Of a stretch of 64,000 nt of DNA, positions 16,124-20,861 are shown piece by piece; position 1 is the stretch's first letter, and every line of letters begins with the position of its first letter. The position numbers were made by a program, and so were the translations under genes. The stretch spans positions 4,715 through 68,714 of the forward strand of contig CAYZGO010000015.1 of NCBI GenBank assembly GCA_964478075.1, given 5' to 3'. Origin of the DNA: an uncultured Anaerolineales bacterium. Its GTDB lineage: Bacteria > Chloroflexota > Anaerolineae > UBA2200. The notes beneath the pieces were generated by a model. It did not search any database and was not told the origin of the DNA. It saw only the letters and a list, made by a program, of their open reading frames with translations.

Positions 16124-17914
16124 CTACATCTTCTCAGCCACAGCCTTTTGCGCCACAGCAATAAACTCGTCCAGCGACTTAGGGCCAAGGTCCTCCTCGC
16201 TGCGCAGGCGCACCGACACCGTGCCGGCCTTGCTCTCTCTGTCGCCTACGATCAACATGTAGGGAACCTTCTGCAACTGGGCTTTGCGCACCTTGGCCTG
16301 CATCCGCTCATCGCTGTCGTCCATTTCGGCGCGCAGGCCAGCCTCGCACAGGCGCTTGAGCACGGAGGCCGCATACTCGTTATGCCGGTGAGCGATAGGA
16401 ATGATCTGCACCTGCACAGGCGACAGCCATACGGGGAAGGCGCCAGCATAGTGCTCAATGAGTCCACCGACAAAGCGCTCCATGCTGCCTAGCACTGTAC
16501 GATGCACCATCACCGGGCGGTGTTCCTTGCCATCCTTGCCCACGAAAGTCATGTCGAAACGCTCCGGGAAGTTGAAATCCACCTGGATGGTGGGACCTTG
16601 CCAGCCACGCCCTAAGGCATCGCGCATGTGGATGTCAATGGCCGGTCCGTAGAACTTGGCTTCACCAGGCTTCACTTTGTACTCGACCTGGCGGATCTTC
16701 AGCGCCTCGTGCAGCGCACCCTCGGCGGTATCCCACCCGCTGTCGTCGCCGATGTACTTGTCTTTGTCGGCGGCACTGCGGATCGAGAGCTCCACATCGA
16801 ATTCCTTGTAGCCGAATGTGCGCAACATAAAGAACGACAGGTCCAGCACGCCAACGATCTCGTCCGTGAGCTGATTGGGACGGCAGAAGATGTGGGCATC
16901 GTCCTGGGTAAAGCCGCGCACGCGCAGCATACCGTGAAGCACGCCGCTCCGTTCGTAGCGGTAGACCGTACCCAGTTCACCCCATCGCAGCGGTAAGTCA
17001 CGATAGGAGCGAGTTCTCGTCTTGTACATCATCACGGCAAAGGGGCAGTTCATCGGCCTGAGCAGATACTCGACGCCATCAATGTCTATGGGCGAGTACA
17101 TGCTTTCGCGGTAAAAGTCCCAATGACCGCTGATCTTCCACAGGTCTAGCCGACCGATGTGGGGACTGTAGACAATGTCGTAACCCCGCTTGCGGTGCTC
17201 CTTACGCCAAAAGTCTTCGATGATCTCGCGGATAAGCGCGCCCTTGGGGTGCCAACAGATGAGTCCCGCGCCAACGAGTTCGTGTGTACTGAACAGGTCT
17301 AGCTCCCGGCCCAGCTTGCGATGGTCGCGCCGCTCTATCTCCACCAACTTGAGCAGGTACTCATCGAGTTGCTCCGCTGTGGGCCAAGCCGTCCCATAGA
17401 TTCGTTGCAGCATCGGCCGCCGCTCATCACCGCGCCAGTAGGCGCCAGCCAGTTTGAGCAGCTTTAGACCATGCGGGTTGATCTCCTTGGTACTGGCCAC
17501 GTGTGGCCCCCGGCAGAGATCAATGAATGGCCCGTCTTTGTAGATGCCCAGCCTGGGCGGTCCCTCGGCGGCCTCACCGTGTTCGTCTCCGCCACCAGCC
17601 ACAATGTCCTCAATCAGCTCCAGCTTGTAGGGTTGGTCAGCGAGAAGCTGCCGCGCTTCTTCCTCGGACACCTCCCGGTACTCAAAGGGATGCCCTTCAG
17701 CTATGATCTCTTTCATGCGAGCCTCGATCTCCTGCATGTCTTCGGGCGTCAATGGGTGCGGCAGATCAAAGTCGTAGTAGAAACCGTCCTCAATCGCTGG
17801 GCCGATGGCGAGCTTTGCCCCTGGGAACTTTTCCAGTACTGCCTGCGCCATGACATGAGACGCGGAATGGCGCAGTTTGTGCAGATAATCCTCTTCGTGT
17901 TTCTCAGACATCAC
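16124..17914 (-). CDS. thrS: Threonyl-tRNA synthetase (short form, no N-terminal TGS domain evident)
   Basis: LRHSASH, DLCRGPH, RDHRKLG, PMNCP, YRYERSG, FYGP, HRTVLGSMERF. Confidence 0.97.
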   Translation of the reverse strand: MMSEKHEEDYLHKLRHSASHVMAQAVLEKFPGAKLAIGPAIEDGFYYDFDLPHPLTPEDMQEIEARMKEIIAEGHPFEYREVSEEEARQLLADQPYKLELIEDIVAGGGDEHGEAAEGPPRLGIYKDGPFIDLCRGPHVASTKEINPHGLKLLKLAGAYWRGDERRPMLQRIYGTAWPTAEQLDEYLLKLVEIERRDHRKLGRELDLFSTHELVGAGLICWHPKGALIREIIEDFWRKEHRKRGYDIVYSPHIGRLDLWKISGHWDFYRESMYSPIDIDGVEYLLRPMNCPFAVMMYKTRTRSYRDLPLRWGELGTVYRYERSGVLHGMLRVRGFTQDDAHIFCRPNQLTDEIVGVLDLSFFMLRTFGYKEFDVELSIRSAADKDKYIGDDSGWDTAEGALHEALKIRQVEYKVKPGEAKFYGPAIDIHMRDALGRGWQGPTIQVDFNFPERFDMTFVGKDGKEHRPVMVHRTVLGSMERFVGGLIEHYAGAFPVWLSPVQVQIIPIAHRHNEYAASVLKRLCEAGLRAEMDDSDERMQAKVRKAQLQKVPYMLIVGDRESKAGTVSVRLRSEEDLGPKSLDEFIAVAQKAVAEKM

Positions 17915-18002
17915 TTTTCTCCTTCCAGTCGGTTAAAAGGCAGGTCACTACAAATGCCAGTCGTGCACTGTCCGTCTTAGTCTCAGTACCGTCATCTGTC
18001 AT
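17904..18002 (-). CDS. Candidate 32-aa Thr-rich upstream ORF overlapping the thrS start
   Basis: AAAGGAGG RBS then ATG; MTDDGTETKTDSARLAFVVTCLLTDWKEKSDV*, 6 Thr codons; below ORF-track cutoff. Confidence 0.4.
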   Translation of the reverse strand: MTDDGTETKTDSARLAFVVTCLLTDWKEKSDV

Positions 18003-18030
18003 ATGCCTGCCTCCTTTCGCTGCCCAAACA

Positions 18031-18292
18031 CAAAACCCTCTCTGCCCTTGGGGCGAGAGGGTTGCTCACGCGGTTCCACCCAACTTGTCAACTGAGCCAG
18101 AATATGCTCTCGTTGCAACTCGTTGTGGCCGATAACGGGTGCCTCCGGGACTCCATACTCTGCCTAGCAACCTGCAGGCATTTCCGGAGCCGGCTCCCAG
18201 GTGGTTTTCGCCGGACTCGCGTTGAGAGGGCTTGCAGTCTGTGACCCTCTCTCCCTGCAACAACTCCCCCGGCTACTCGTCCTGATCAAAGC
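18031..18292 (-). promoter_or_regulatory. T-box riboswitch, Thr specifier (ACC)
   Basis: Minus strand: AGGACGAGTAG stem I start, GGGAGAG AG-box, GAAA-ACC-A specifier (18203-18205), CCCGTTATC, T-box AAGTTGGGTGGAACCGCG, terminator CCCTCTCG..GAGAGGG-TTTTG; upstream of thrS. Confidence 0.93.
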
Positions 18293-18338
18293 CCATGTGC
18301 AAAGCCCATGTGCACAGCCTATGTGCAAAGCCTATGAC
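18288..18338. repeat. Four tandem copies of a 13-bp unit
   Basis: AAAGCCCATGTGC AAAGCCCATGTGC ACAGCCTATGTGC AAAGCCTATGAC. Confidence 0.85.
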
Positions 18339-18396
18339 GCAAGCGACGTTAGAGAGAAGGCCCACGGACGAACTGTGAGCCTCGTTGCCTGACACT

Positions 18397-18425
18397 AGTA
18401 TACAGCAAAACCGCGATTCTGGCAA
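18397..18425 (-). promoter_or_regulatory. sigma70-type promoter for the T-box/thrS leader
   Basis: TTGCCA-17 bp-TATACT on minus strand. Confidence 0.7.
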
Positions 18426-18579: not shown

Positions 18580-18608
18580 TTGACATTTCAAGGGATGCAG
18601 TATATAGT
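18580..18608 (+). promoter_or_regulatory. sigma70-type promoter for rodZ-like/rimO
   Basis: TTGACA-17 bp-TATAGT. Confidence 0.75.
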
Positions 18609-18649: not shown

Positions 18650-19450
18650 ATGGGAGAGTTAGGAGAGCTTCTGCGCAAGACTCGCGAAGCTAAGGGTCTG
18701 TCTTTGGCGCAGGTTGAGGAAGCAACCAAGATCCGCAGTGTCTATCTGCAGGCGCTGGAGGAGGAAGACGATGACTGCCTGCCGCCTCCAGTGTACGTCA
18801 AAGGCTTCCTGAGAAACTATGCCCGTTACCTTGATCTGGATCCGCAGCAGGTGCTTTCCCTTTACCAAGAGTCTGAAGCCACGACCCCAGCGACACCTGC
18901 CCAAGTGATGCTGGACGAACCCCTGGAGCCACTGACTCTGAGACGATGGTGGCCAGCCTGGGTTGTGTTACTAGTCATTGCCGTGGTGGTTGCAGTCTGG
19001 TGGGGTTACCAGCGCTACTATGGTACGGTGCCAGTCGCACAGGCCACAGCGACTCCAACACCCACTTGCGTTCCACCGTCCCCAACGCGTGAGCCACCAC
19101 CGGCCACGCCGTCGCCTACACTGACGGCCAGTCCTACGCCGACTCCCACAACTGCTATTGCCCTGGAAGTGAGCATCGAGCTCGTTGGCCAACAAGCATG
19201 GTTGCTCGTGCACGTGGATGGCGAAATGGTCTTCACTGGGACACTCGAGCCTGGTGCCACCAGAACCTGGCGGGCAGACGAACGGATTGTATTGCACTGT
19301 GGCAACGCCGGGGCCGTGCGCGTGACGGTCAACGGCCAGACACTGGGCCTGATGGGCGAGCCCGGCCAAGTCATCGAAAAGGAATGGACCGCGCCAGGCG
19401 TGCCTACCCGAACGCCTGAGCCCACACCAAGTCCAACAATAACCCCTTGA
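18650..19450 (+). CDS. RodZ-like protein (HTH, TM, Pro/Thr linker, DUF4115-like domain)
   Basis: LGELLRKTREAKGLSL..VE..TKIR..YL.ALEE...YVKGFLRNYARYL; GNAGAVRVTVNG. Confidence 0.85.
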   Translation: MGELGELLRKTREAKGLSLAQVEEATKIRSVYLQALEEEDDDCLPPPVYVKGFLRNYARYLDLDPQQVLSLYQESEATTPATPAQVMLDEPLEPLTLRRWWPAWVVLLVIAVVVAVWWGYQRYYGTVPVAQATATPTPTCVPPSPTREPPPATPSPTLTASPTPTPTTAIALEVSIELVGQQAWLLVHVDGEMVFTGTLEPGATRTWRADERIVLHCGNAGAVRVTVNGQTLGLMGEPGQVIEKEWTAPGVPTRTPEPTPSPTITP

Positions 19451-19505: not shown

Positions 19506-20861
19506 TTGTGGTTAGGAGACATAAGCTTGAGGAGACGTTTCTACCTGCTCTCCCTCGGATGCCCCAAGAACACGGTTGACGCAGAAGCCATGGGCGGATT
19601 GCTGGAGGAGGCAGGGCTGCGCAAGACAGAGCGACCTGACCGCGCAGATGTGTTGATTGTGAACACCTGCGGCTTCATTGACCAGGCACGAGAGGAATCG
19701 TACGCTGTACTGCGCGAATTGGCACAGGCTAAGCAGAACGGCCAGATCCTGTTGGCCGCTGGATGCCTCTCACAACGCTACGGAGAAGAGGTGAGACGCG
19801 CTGTGCCGGGTGTTGATGGCATCCTCGGCACGCGAGAGTGGGCCAACGTTGGCCGGTGCGTAGAGCGGCTGCTGGGTGGAGAGCTCGGCGCTGGCGTGCG
19901 ACCGAAGGATGAGGTATCTGTGGTCACGCCCATGCGGCGTCAGGCTCAGGGCCCCAGCGCCTACCTGAAGATTGCCGATGGCTGCGATGCACCCTGTGCC
20001 TTTTGCGCTATACCACTGATCAAGGGGCCACAGCGCAGCAAGGCACGTTCCGCTATCTTGGAGGAGGCTTGCCAACTCGTCGTTCAGGGAGTCCAGGAGG
20101 TAATTCTCATCGCCCAGGACACGACAGCCTATGGCCGTGATCTGGGGGAGAGCGACGCTTTGCTCAGTTTGATCGAGGACATCCTGAAAGCCGTGCCACA
20201 GCTCCAGTGGCTGCGTCTGATGTATACCTATCCGCAGCACATTACTCCATGTCTGATCGAAACTATGGCGCTGCATCCCCAGGTCTGTCACTACCTCGAT
20301 TTGCCACTGCAACACGCCCACCCTGCCACACTACGGCGTATGCGGCGCTCACCTGACGTGGAAGGCGTGCGAAAGTTGATAGCGAATCTGCGCCAGGCCA
20401 TGCCCGACGTCGCCTTGCGCACTGCCTTTATCGTTGGCTACCCTGGCGAGACAGAGGAGGAATTTGCTGCGTTGCTGGACTTTGTGGCCGAGATCACCTT
20501 TGACAAGGTGGGTATTTTTGTTTACTCACTGGAAGAAGGCACGCCAGCGGCAAGCCTGCCCGATCCCGTACCTCGCGAAGTGGCTGAGGAACGCTACGCG
20601 CGTGCTATGGAACTACAACGGGACGTCTCCCTGTCACGCAACCAGATACAGCTAGGACGTACGCTGGATGTGCTTATTGAGGGGGCCGGGCAGGGAATCA
20701 GCGTGGGACGCTGCTATCGGGACGCCCCGGAGATTGACGGCTACGTGCTCATGCGCGGAGAATGGCCTGTGGGGCAGATGGTGAAGGCGGAAATCGAGCG
20801 CGCCATGGATTACGACCTAGAGGGGCGAGTTCTGTCAGCTTCCCAGAAACCCGTTTTCTGA
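19506..20861 (+). CDS. rimO: Ribosomal protein S12 methylthiotransferase
   Basis: SLGCPKNTVD, NTCGFI, GC...C.FC.IP radical SAM motif, TRAM domain with DAPEIDG. Confidence 0.93.
   Translation: MWLGDISLRRRFYLLSLGCPKNTVDAEAMGGLLEEAGLRKTERPDRADVLIVNTCGFIDQAREESYAVLRELAQAKQNGQILLAAGCLSQRYGEEVRRAVPGVDGILGTREWANVGRCVERLLGGELGAGVRPKDEVSVVTPMRRQAQGPSAYLKIADGCDAPCAFCAIPLIKGPQRSKARSAILEEACQLVVQGVQEVILIAQDTTAYGRDLGESDALLSLIEDILKAVPQLQWLRLMYTYPQHITPCLIETMALHPQVCHYLDLPLQHAHPATLRRMRRSPDVEGVRKLIANLRQAMPDVALRTAFIVGYPGETEEEFAALLDFVAEITFDKVGIFVYSLEEGTPAASLPDPVPREVAEERYARAMELQRDVSLSRNQIQLGRTLDVLIEGAGQGISVGRCYRDAPEIDGYVLMRGEWPVGQMVKAEIERAMDYDLEGRVLSASQKPVF

Follow-up and report, generated by a model that had tools for sequence, protein, structure and literature searches.

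Textbooks commonly present T-boxes and leader-peptide attenuators as two answers to one problem, of which a system has one or the other, and the only worked example known to us in which both act in series is the anti-TRAP (at) operon of Bacillus subtilis. There, rtpA lies under a Trp T-box and a leader peptide, RtpLP, which contains three Trp codons (PMC2311275), and complete translation of RtpLP is described as blocking RtpA translation (PMC2311275; Chen & Yanofsky, Science 2003 and Mol Cell 2004, as cited in PMC10327191). Here we analyse a 64,000-nucleotide (nt) stretch of DNA from an uncultured Anaerolineales bacterium (contig CAYZGO010000015.1, referred to throughout as the window), in which a 32-codon, Thr-rich leader open-reading frame (ORF; this one is termed uORF) sits between a Thr T-box terminator and thrS, the gene for threonine--tRNA ligase (ThrRS). 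A reading made from the letters of the window before any comparison (the sequence-only reading) had implied that a T-box combined with a leader peptide would be new; the tandem is already documented for B. subtilis rtpA/rtpLP (PMC2311275; Chen & Yanofsky 2003, cited in PMC10327191).

The order of elements is that of rtpLP-rtpA, with a T-box and its terminator followed by a short ORF, which has its own ribosome-binding site and is rich in cognate codons, and then by the regulated gene. In the window and in one relative (L096, see below) the uORF also ends at the ribosome-binding region of the downstream gene, as in rtpLP. Unlike rtpLP, the amino acid is Thr rather than Trp and the phylum Chloroflexota rather than Bacillota, the regulated gene would be the synthetase gene itself rather than that of a regulator of a biosynthetic operon, the cognate codons are spaced (2, 6, 8, 10) rather than three in a row, and the non-Thr residues D-D-[G/E] are conserved as well; there is no sequence homology between the two. 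In most relatives the uORF stops 44–132 nt short of the gene, again unlike rtpLP, so direct occlusion of the downstream start cannot be general.

Control of a synthetase operon by leader-peptide attenuation is familiar from pheM-pheST of Escherichia coli. Like thrL (thrABC) and pheM (pheST), the uORF is a short leader rich in the cognate amino acid, in which ribosome progress would report charged tRNA. The E. coli leaders, however, overlap alternative terminator/antiterminator hairpins and a U-tract, whereas here the sole canonical terminator lies upstream and is the T-box's own, and the hairpin that follows the uORF is without a conserved U-tract (missing in L093, L001 and L095); as no terminator follows it, the uORF is not a classical attenuator of the thrL/pheM type. 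Thr density is also lower in the uORF than in thrL (8 of 21), and the cognate codons of thrL and hisL are consecutive. The locus shares an orthodox transcriptional Thr T-box with the B. subtilis thrS and thrZ leaders (RF00230), but ordinary T-box leaders, including those of five related lineages analysed here, pass from the terminator directly to the ribosome-binding site of the gene, and the thrS/thrZ tandem arrangements known to us are repeated T-boxes, not a T-box with an ORF.

Two further systems are similar in part. The Salmonella mgtA and mgtCBR leaders combine a riboswitch with short proline- or other codon-rich ORFs, mgtL and mgtP (PMC3641672 for mgtCBR). As in those leaders, an RNA sensor and a translated short ORF reporting charged-tRNA or amino-acid supply would be joined in one leader, but there the sensors read different signals and the ORF lies inside the structures that switch transcription elongation, whereas here both sensors would read tRNA-Thr and the ORF comes after the terminator. 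The E. coli thrS operator likewise provides post-transcriptional control of thrS in the 5' leader beside the ribosome-binding site; there ThrRS binds mimics of the anticodon arm and no ORF is involved, whilst here a coding frame is conserved and the loops mimic the tRNA-Thr anticodon loop inconsistently. Full-text literature searches brought up no description of a leader ORF following a thrS T-box, nor of one in Chloroflexi.

Conservation and probable losses of the leader ORF

In the window the uORF lies between the T-box terminator and thrS, with the following features:

18017..18010, minus strand: uORF ribosome-binding site AAAGGAGG, with 7 nt from GGAGG to ATG
18002..17904, minus strand: leader ORF (uORF) of 32 codons, MTDDGTETKTDSARLAFVVTCLLTDWKEKSDV, ATG at 18002..18000 and TGA at 17906..17904
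18002..17979, minus strand: conserved core of the uORF (codons 1–8), from comparison with relatives

The Thr codons are ACA (codon 2, starting at 17999), ACT (codon 6, 17987), ACT (codon 8, 17981), ACG (codon 10, 17975), ACC (codon 20, 17945) and ACC (codon 24, 17933). The strong ribosome-binding site, the 32-codon ORF and the six Thr codons, four of them in the first ten, which the sequence-only reading had described after the T-box terminator, are all present on the minus strand, and the ORF does run over the thrS ribosome-binding site and stop just inside thrS, with its stop 5 nt beyond the thrS ATG and an overlap of 8 nt (ATGTCTGA). Gene callers left the uORF uncalled in every contig examined, and no existing gene call was found for the exact peptide. 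Across DNA contigs from four runs the region has only two variants, of which one, D26N, falls in the non-conserved tail and the other is synonymous and lies in thrS.

For comparison we used the thrS leaders of 15 further distinct lineages, obtained from one genome scan and from eleven contigs of ThrRS homologues 74–99% identical, out of about 120 close ThrRS relatives listed; a scan of metagenomes with the ThrRS N-terminus returned one distant locus. Nine of the lineages bear the uORF and six lack it. A homologous uORF in the same place, between T-box terminator and thrS, is found in eight complete lineages, whose ThrRS proteins are 65–99% identical to that of the window, and in L001, where the contig end removes its 5' part. 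The peptides, each followed by a stop codon, are given below under our locus numbers with the ThrRS identity to the window:

L082 (ThrRS 99%): same peptide as the window except D26N
L083 (88%): MTDDGTDGQ
L090/91 (84%): MTDDESGTSTETVRM
L092 (82%): MTDDETGTASETWTR
L093/94 (82%): MADDETSTTECCAGR
L001 (81%): cut at the 5' end, ..EDETSTTEYCAGR
L095 (82%): MTNDGTGTQADR
L096 (80%, complete genome CP070818.1): MTDDETGTTFVSTCLLTDCKEKTNV
L003 (65%): TTG start, (M)TQDGTGATGWALGYR

These uORFs share the N-terminus M-T-D-D-[G/E]-T-x-T after GGAGG and a start codon, with GGAGG 6–8 nt from the start in seven of the eight complete lineages and 11 nt from it in L083. T2, T6 and T8 are conserved across the uORFs (Thr6 is Ser in L090), and additional Thr residues occur at shifting positions. 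There is no second occurrence of the motif in the 64-kb window, and in 102 loci it was confined to uORF-bearing thrS leaders, bar two chance matches within thrS coding sequence. Length ranges from 9 to 32 codons, most uORFs ending after 9–16, and the peptides cannot be aligned past about codon 9. Only in the window/L082 lineage and in L096 does the uORF run into thrS, stopping 5 nt past the thrS ATG; in L083, L090, L092, L095, L093/L001 and L003 the stop lies 44–132 nt upstream of the gene. The alignment of related thrS leaders, which had been suggested together with the sequence-only reading, therefore bears out its ribosome-binding site, start and Thr-rich N-terminus (T2, T6, T8) as conserved features, but not the length of the ORF or its reading frame. 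The C-terminal two thirds of the window uORF are not conserved as a peptide, the same nucleotides being non-coding or in another frame in L083, L090, L092 and L001, and the window tail FVVTCLLTDWKEKSDV resembles that of L096 only because the nucleotides beneath it are conserved (a pyrimidine block, a spacer, and the thrS ribosome-binding site and start).

Within the conserved part, substitutions fall mostly at third codon positions. Across codons 2–8 of eight distinct sequences, the minimum numbers of substitutions at codon positions 1, 2 and 3 are 5, 4 and 15 (binomial P = 0.003), codon 2 is variously ACA, ACT, ACC or ACG, and codons 3 and 4 are either GAT or GAC. Over the first seven codons the window differs from L083 at four sites, every one of them a third position, and of the five differences between L093 and L001 four are of this kind. 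This third-position bias, the use of codon 2 and the similar spacing of the ribosome-binding site point to a translated and selected ORF, and would be unexpected for a non-coding RNA. Within the first 16 codons, or fewer in shorter uORFs, Thr accounts for 29 of 106 residues (27%), as against 5.3% in the long ORFs of the window, the counts from different uORFs not being phylogenetically independent. In the unalignable codons 9–16, Thr still makes up 9 of 50 residues (P about 0.001) at positions that differ by lineage, and AC dinucleotides in the uORFs cluster in frame 0; that Thr keeps reappearing at sites which are not homologous speaks for selection acting on Thr content. When the 127-nt spacer of the window was shuffled 20,000 times with dinucleotides preserved, 0.2% of the shuffles yielded an ORF with a ribosome-binding site, a length of 25 codons or more and six or more Thr, but these criteria were picked after the ORF had been seen, so conservation in relatives is the stronger argument. 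From these sequence patterns we consider it quite likely that the uORF is a real, translated and selected leader ORF.

By sequence, its distribution is a clade of Anaerolineae (Chloroflexota) thrS leaders: in the ThrRS tree the uORF-bearing lineages form one clade, joined by the distant L003. This distribution suggests an old element with repeated losses. The uORF is missing from L084–88 (ThrRS identity 85%), L089 (83%), L097–100 (77%), L002 (68%) and L004 (65%), and L101/L102 (74%) hold only a doubtful remnant. In L084, uORF-type context (AGCGAAAGGAG) lies immediately ahead of the thrS ATG, and this looks like a deletion that took out the module, beginning at the uORF ribosome-binding site and reaching that of thrS and the thrS start. 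L089 has no uORF, yet it retains a CCCACC...GATTGC block that aligns with the pyrimidine block, so that in sequence L084–L088 and L089 look like two different loss events. The remnant in L101/L102, ATGACTGACGGTAGT (M-T-D-G-S...), is found 30–50 nt upstream of thrS with a weak ribosome-binding site and crosses the thrS ribosome-binding site and start in a different frame; it may represent a uORF that is decaying or has been compacted.

Sizeable insertions are tolerated around the uORF, with its start and N-terminus intact. In L090 about 50 nt separate the terminator from the uORF ribosome-binding site, in L093/L001 a structured segment follows the uORF, whose stop lies 132 nt before thrS, and in L003, with the stop 110 nt before thrS, a duplicated ATCGGTAGGGGCTAC... 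block forms a long hairpin. A different, larger insert is present at the same position in L007 (a Chloroflexi metagenome-assembled genome, JACOUE010000005.1), where an ORF of ~85 codons between T-box terminator and thrS encodes a hydrophobic small protein (MRNTRHETGDTARQLTGPGT...), has 5 Thr in its first 20 residues and overlaps the thrS start with its stop (TGATG).

RNA structure between the uORF and thrS

Folding of the leader brought out two paired segments in the window:

18015..18006, minus strand: AGGAGGCAGG, 5' arm of a predicted long-range helix, whose partner is 17944..17935 in both the minimum-energy fold and the RNAalifold consensus
17948..17935, minus strand: pyrimidine block GTGA-CCTGCCTTTT, complementary to the uORF ribosome-binding site with ATGAC and partly to the thrS ribosome-binding site

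The pyrimidine block is conserved as nucleotides, be it coding (window, L096) or non-coding (L083, L090, L092, L001). In the minimum-energy folds of the window (10 base pairs), L090 and L096, AGGAGGCAGG of the uORF ribosome-binding site pairs with CCUGCCUUUU, and the RNAalifold consensus of six leaders contains the same helix, lengthened by AUGAC:GUCA; 84.5% of cells are paired in the predicted register and 42–60% when the partner is slid. On this modelling, a helix between the uORF ribosome-binding site and the pyrimidine block is plausible. The block doubles as the 3' arm of a local hairpin in L083, L090, L092 and L095, where the uORF stop codon falls in or just past the 5' arm, whilst the window and L096 are without this 5' arm and their uORFs continue into thrS. 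It is also able to pair weakly with the thrS ribosome-binding site.

Several other candidates for this segment were rejected. A second intrinsic terminator after the uORF would require a terminator-like site, and none was called; the U-run is absent in L093, L001 and L095, and the hairpin in the window and L096. An operator of the E. coli type, in which ThrRS would bind a mimic of the anticodon arm, finds UGU, GGU or CGU in some loops, but these are out of register and missing in L092. A programmed +1 frameshift joining the uORF to ThrRS meets with overlap in two lineages only and with no slippery context, and the uORF is not a former N-terminus or extension of thrS, being in a different frame and having no similarity to MSEKHEED. 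An Rfam search of the leader up to E = 10 gave, besides the T-box, a single match, Atu_C9 at a chance-level 15 bits.

Proposed role in the control of thrS

By analogy with rtpLP, the uORF would be a translated Thr-codon leader peptide acting in tandem with the T-box, that is, a second and ribosome-based control layer on thrS, a proposal whose chances we regard as evenly balanced. Given the anatomy of the leader, a transcript carries the uORF only when it has passed the T-box terminator. A ribosome would load on its strong site and decode Thr at codons 2, 6 and 8, often also at codons 9–14; these codons would act as a sensor of charged tRNA-Thr, and the speed at which the ribosome clears them would set the outcome where thrS translation begins. 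For the window and L096 the logic would be the one documented for rtpLP-rtpA: ribosomes completing the uORF would occupy the thrS ribosome-binding site and ATG, whilst those stalled at the early Thr codons, >70 nt upstream, would leave the thrS start free. In relatives with a short uORF the leader ends early, usually in the hairpin 5' arm, and the signal would be relayed via the pyrimidine block, which could pair with the ribosome-binding site of the leader itself, with the hairpin arm or, weakly, with the ribosome-binding site of thrS. We favour repression of thrS by completed uORF translation, on the sole ground that the two sensors would then respond alike to one signal; the ATGTCTGA overlap could instead bring about positive coupling.

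All four ACN codons are used across the uORFs, which would thus draw on more tRNA-Thr isoacceptors than the T-box specifier, which is always ACC, and we speculate that the two may sample different isoacceptors. Stated in full, the proposal is that a family-level clade of Anaerolineae places two serial sensors on thrS, the T-box reading uncharged tRNA-Thr(GGU) at transcription and the uORF reading charged tRNA-Thr of several isoacceptors at translation, via a shared anti-Shine-Dalgarno block; this fuller version we put forward tentatively and with somewhat less than even confidence.

A number of results weigh against a second Thr sensor. The position of the uORF stop is unconserved (overlapping thrS in two lineages and 44–132 nt upstream of it in six), so one occlusion mechanism cannot apply to all lineages, and the coupling or gating of thrS initiation by overlap, which the sequence-only reading had envisaged, cannot be the conserved mechanism, as the overlap is limited to the window/L082 lineage and L096. 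The module is dispensable, since five related lineages have the thrS ribosome-binding site straight after the T-box terminator. The codons for Thr are spaced (2, 6, 8, 10), with at most two adjacent (L093, L096) and no consecutive run. Asp3, Asp4 and Gly/Glu5 are conserved as strongly as Thr, for which a pure codon sensor has no need. Among six sequences the long-range helix shows a single compensatory pair, and shuffles match the values observed. We also folded eight orthologues by partition function with ribosome-sized masks placed at each Thr codon, at the stop, or over the whole 5' part: accessibility of the thrS ribosome-binding site showed no consistent change, and the change in the window was reversed when the leader's own ribosome-binding site was masked. 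A switch that sequesters the thrS ribosome-binding site according to ribosome position, which was among the candidates considered, is unsupported by this masked folding. Finally, no RNA runs were found that hold the uORF region.

The acidic residues, being conserved, suggest that the proposed sensor may have a nascent-peptide component as well, and they are also the starting point of the alternative that survives best, in which the uORF is translated and selected but is no sensor of Thr-tRNA; we consider this unlikely, though it deserves to be set out. It comes in three versions. In the first, the acidic M-T-D-D-[G/E]-T would be an arrest, drop-off or destabilising peptide, perhaps answering another signal. 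In the second, the uORF would have a general ribosome role, a ribosome near the 5' end of the read-through transcript guarding the mRNA from 5' decay, as the Bacillus 'STAB-SD' elements do (for example GAAAGGAGG of cryIIIA). In the third, the uORF would hold a ribosome close behind RNA polymerase, or supply ribosomes to thrS by coupling. Such a role without sensing is consistent with the conservation of Asp3, Asp4 and Gly/Glu5 through synonymous third-position changes, which indicates that the peptide or the first two codon positions are selected, with the non-consecutive Thr codons, with masked folding that gave no consistent switch dependent on Thr stalling, and with the overlap of uORF stop and thrS start in the window and L096 (ATGTCTGA), a classic termination-reinitiation layout. 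It fits poorly with the recurrence of Thr at non-homologous positions (9/50) and with the fact that the enriched residue is that of the T-box and of the gene, and general stabilisation or coupling leaves unexplained both why the module is restricted to thrS leaders here and why relatives manage without it.

An element acting as RNA only, with the ORF incidental, is improbable. It could be a structured spacer, a second riboswitch-like element or a protein-binding operator, for instance of the E. coli thrS type, and the 3' half of the segment (pyrimidine block, spacer and thrS ribosome-binding site) is indeed conserved as nucleotides whatever the frame. A 171-nt segment that includes the terminator folds better than its shuffles (z = -3.9), and UGU, GGU or CGU, the anticodons of tRNA-Thr, stand in several hairpin loops. 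Yet the third-position periodicity, the use of four ACN codons at codon 2 and the similar ribosome-binding-site distance are unexpected for a non-coding RNA; the T-box is the sole Rfam family matched even at E = 10, apart from the chance-level Atu_C9; neither the window nor L096 has the central hairpin; the L092 loop is without NGU, and the loop registers misplace G35-U36 relative to an anticodon loop; and covariation is weak. Still less probable is the chance ORF or functionless relic that the sequence-only reading had allowed for, for example the leftover of a duplication or insertion between two ribosome-binding sites, which would agree with the module's absence from five related lineages, the resemblance of L084 to a clean deletion between ribosome-binding sites, the freely varying length and C-terminus and the doubtful remnant of L101/L102, whose ribosome-binding site is weak, but the start, ribosome-binding site and N-terminal peptide stay intact down to 65% ThrRS identity while the flanking leader diverges and gains insertions, the features of the window ORF arise in 0.2% of spacer shuffles, and conservation in eight lineages with a coding-type pattern of substitution makes both chance and a gene relic unlikely.

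If the tandem of T-box and Thr-codon leader peptide is real, it would be, to our knowledge, the first such control of a synthetase gene and without precedent beyond Bacillota, and the rtpLP design would have been invented independently. With a second case of separate origin, serial RNA-based and ribosome-based sensing of one tRNA species would become a recurring design, and this case concerns a core housekeeping gene of a distant phylum, with conservation in many uncultured lineages. It would raise the question of what a ribosome sensor gains over the T-box, candidates being the reading of several isoacceptors, of charged versus uncharged tRNA, or a later decision point, and of why the uORF has been lost repeatedly. 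For annotation, leaders labelled plain 'T-box' may conceal more translated sensors, gene callers having missed this ORF.

T-box leader, thrS and gene neighbourhood

The remaining features of the thrS leader and gene are:

18425..18397, minus strand: promoter-like site of the thrS leader (TTGCCA, 17 nt, TATACT), from a consensus scan
18298..18046, minus strand: Thr T-box leader (stem I, specifier loop, T-box sequence), RF00230, 88.3 bits, E = 1e-19, model positions 1–219
18205..18203, minus strand: specifier codon ACC (Thr) in GAAA-ACC-A (18209..18202), from sequence and cmscan alignment
18083..18069, minus strand: T-box sequence TTGGGTGGAACCGCG, followed by a hairpin and U-tract; putative antiterminator competing with the intrinsic terminator
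18061..18026, minus strand: T-box terminator hairpin (CCCTCTC...GAGAGGG) and U-tract TTTTGTGTTT, from the fold; conserved in all relatives
17926..17919, minus strand: thrS ribosome-binding site GGAAGGAG, read from sequence; AAGGAG invariant across the aligned relatives
16124..17911, minus strand: thrS, threonine--tRNA ligase, 595 amino acids from the ATG at 17911, with Pfam domains tRNA_SAD, tRNA-synt_2b and HGTP_anticodon

By its sequence the T-box part is an ordinary member of RF00230, of the transcriptional type with competing antiterminator and terminator structures. In the window it matches the full model length but scores 4.7 bits under the Rfam gathering score of 93, so a default Rfam scan of the window is empty, and default annotation of the contig would list no T-box; the orthologous leaders of nine relatives pass the gathering score with 93.4–105.7 bits. 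The specifier ACC is retained in the leaders of all relatives and agrees, as a Thr codon, with the amino acid of the downstream gene. A simple terminator scan overlooked the terminator, probably because its stem carries a bulge. Relatives, too, have the promoter-like GATTTGCCA...TGTATACT block ahead of their T-boxes. A 13-nt tandem repeat (CACATGGGCTTTG, minus strand) in about four copies (18342..18287) follows the promoter-like site, ahead of stem I of the T-box, and the 99%-identical L082 has fewer of them, so copy number at the leader's 5' end differs between near-identical strains.

The thrS ATG at 17911..17909 is the start common to all relatives, the GTG at 17914 being merely the first in-frame thrS start in the ORF listing, and relatives of the gene product are named threonine--tRNA ligase. 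Divergent from thrS on the plus strand are a RodZ-like gene (18650..19450; HTH_25 and RodZ_C with a Pro/Thr-rich linker), which a promoter-like site at 18580..18608 (plus strand; TTGACA, 17 nt, TATAGT) faces, and a radical-SAM methylthiotransferase gene of the MiaB/RimO type (19506..20861). The order thrS, RodZ-like gene, methylthiotransferase gene is maintained in most relatives. By the relatives of its ThrRS the window belongs to Anaerolineae (Chloroflexota), and its DNA is present in salt-marsh metagenomes. In several Chloroflexota a tRNA gene lies just upstream of thrS (L096, 1060..1135; L003, 58..131; L011, 1194..1269). In L096 and L011 the gene is for tRNA-Val (GAC); L096 and L003 have it ahead of the T-box.

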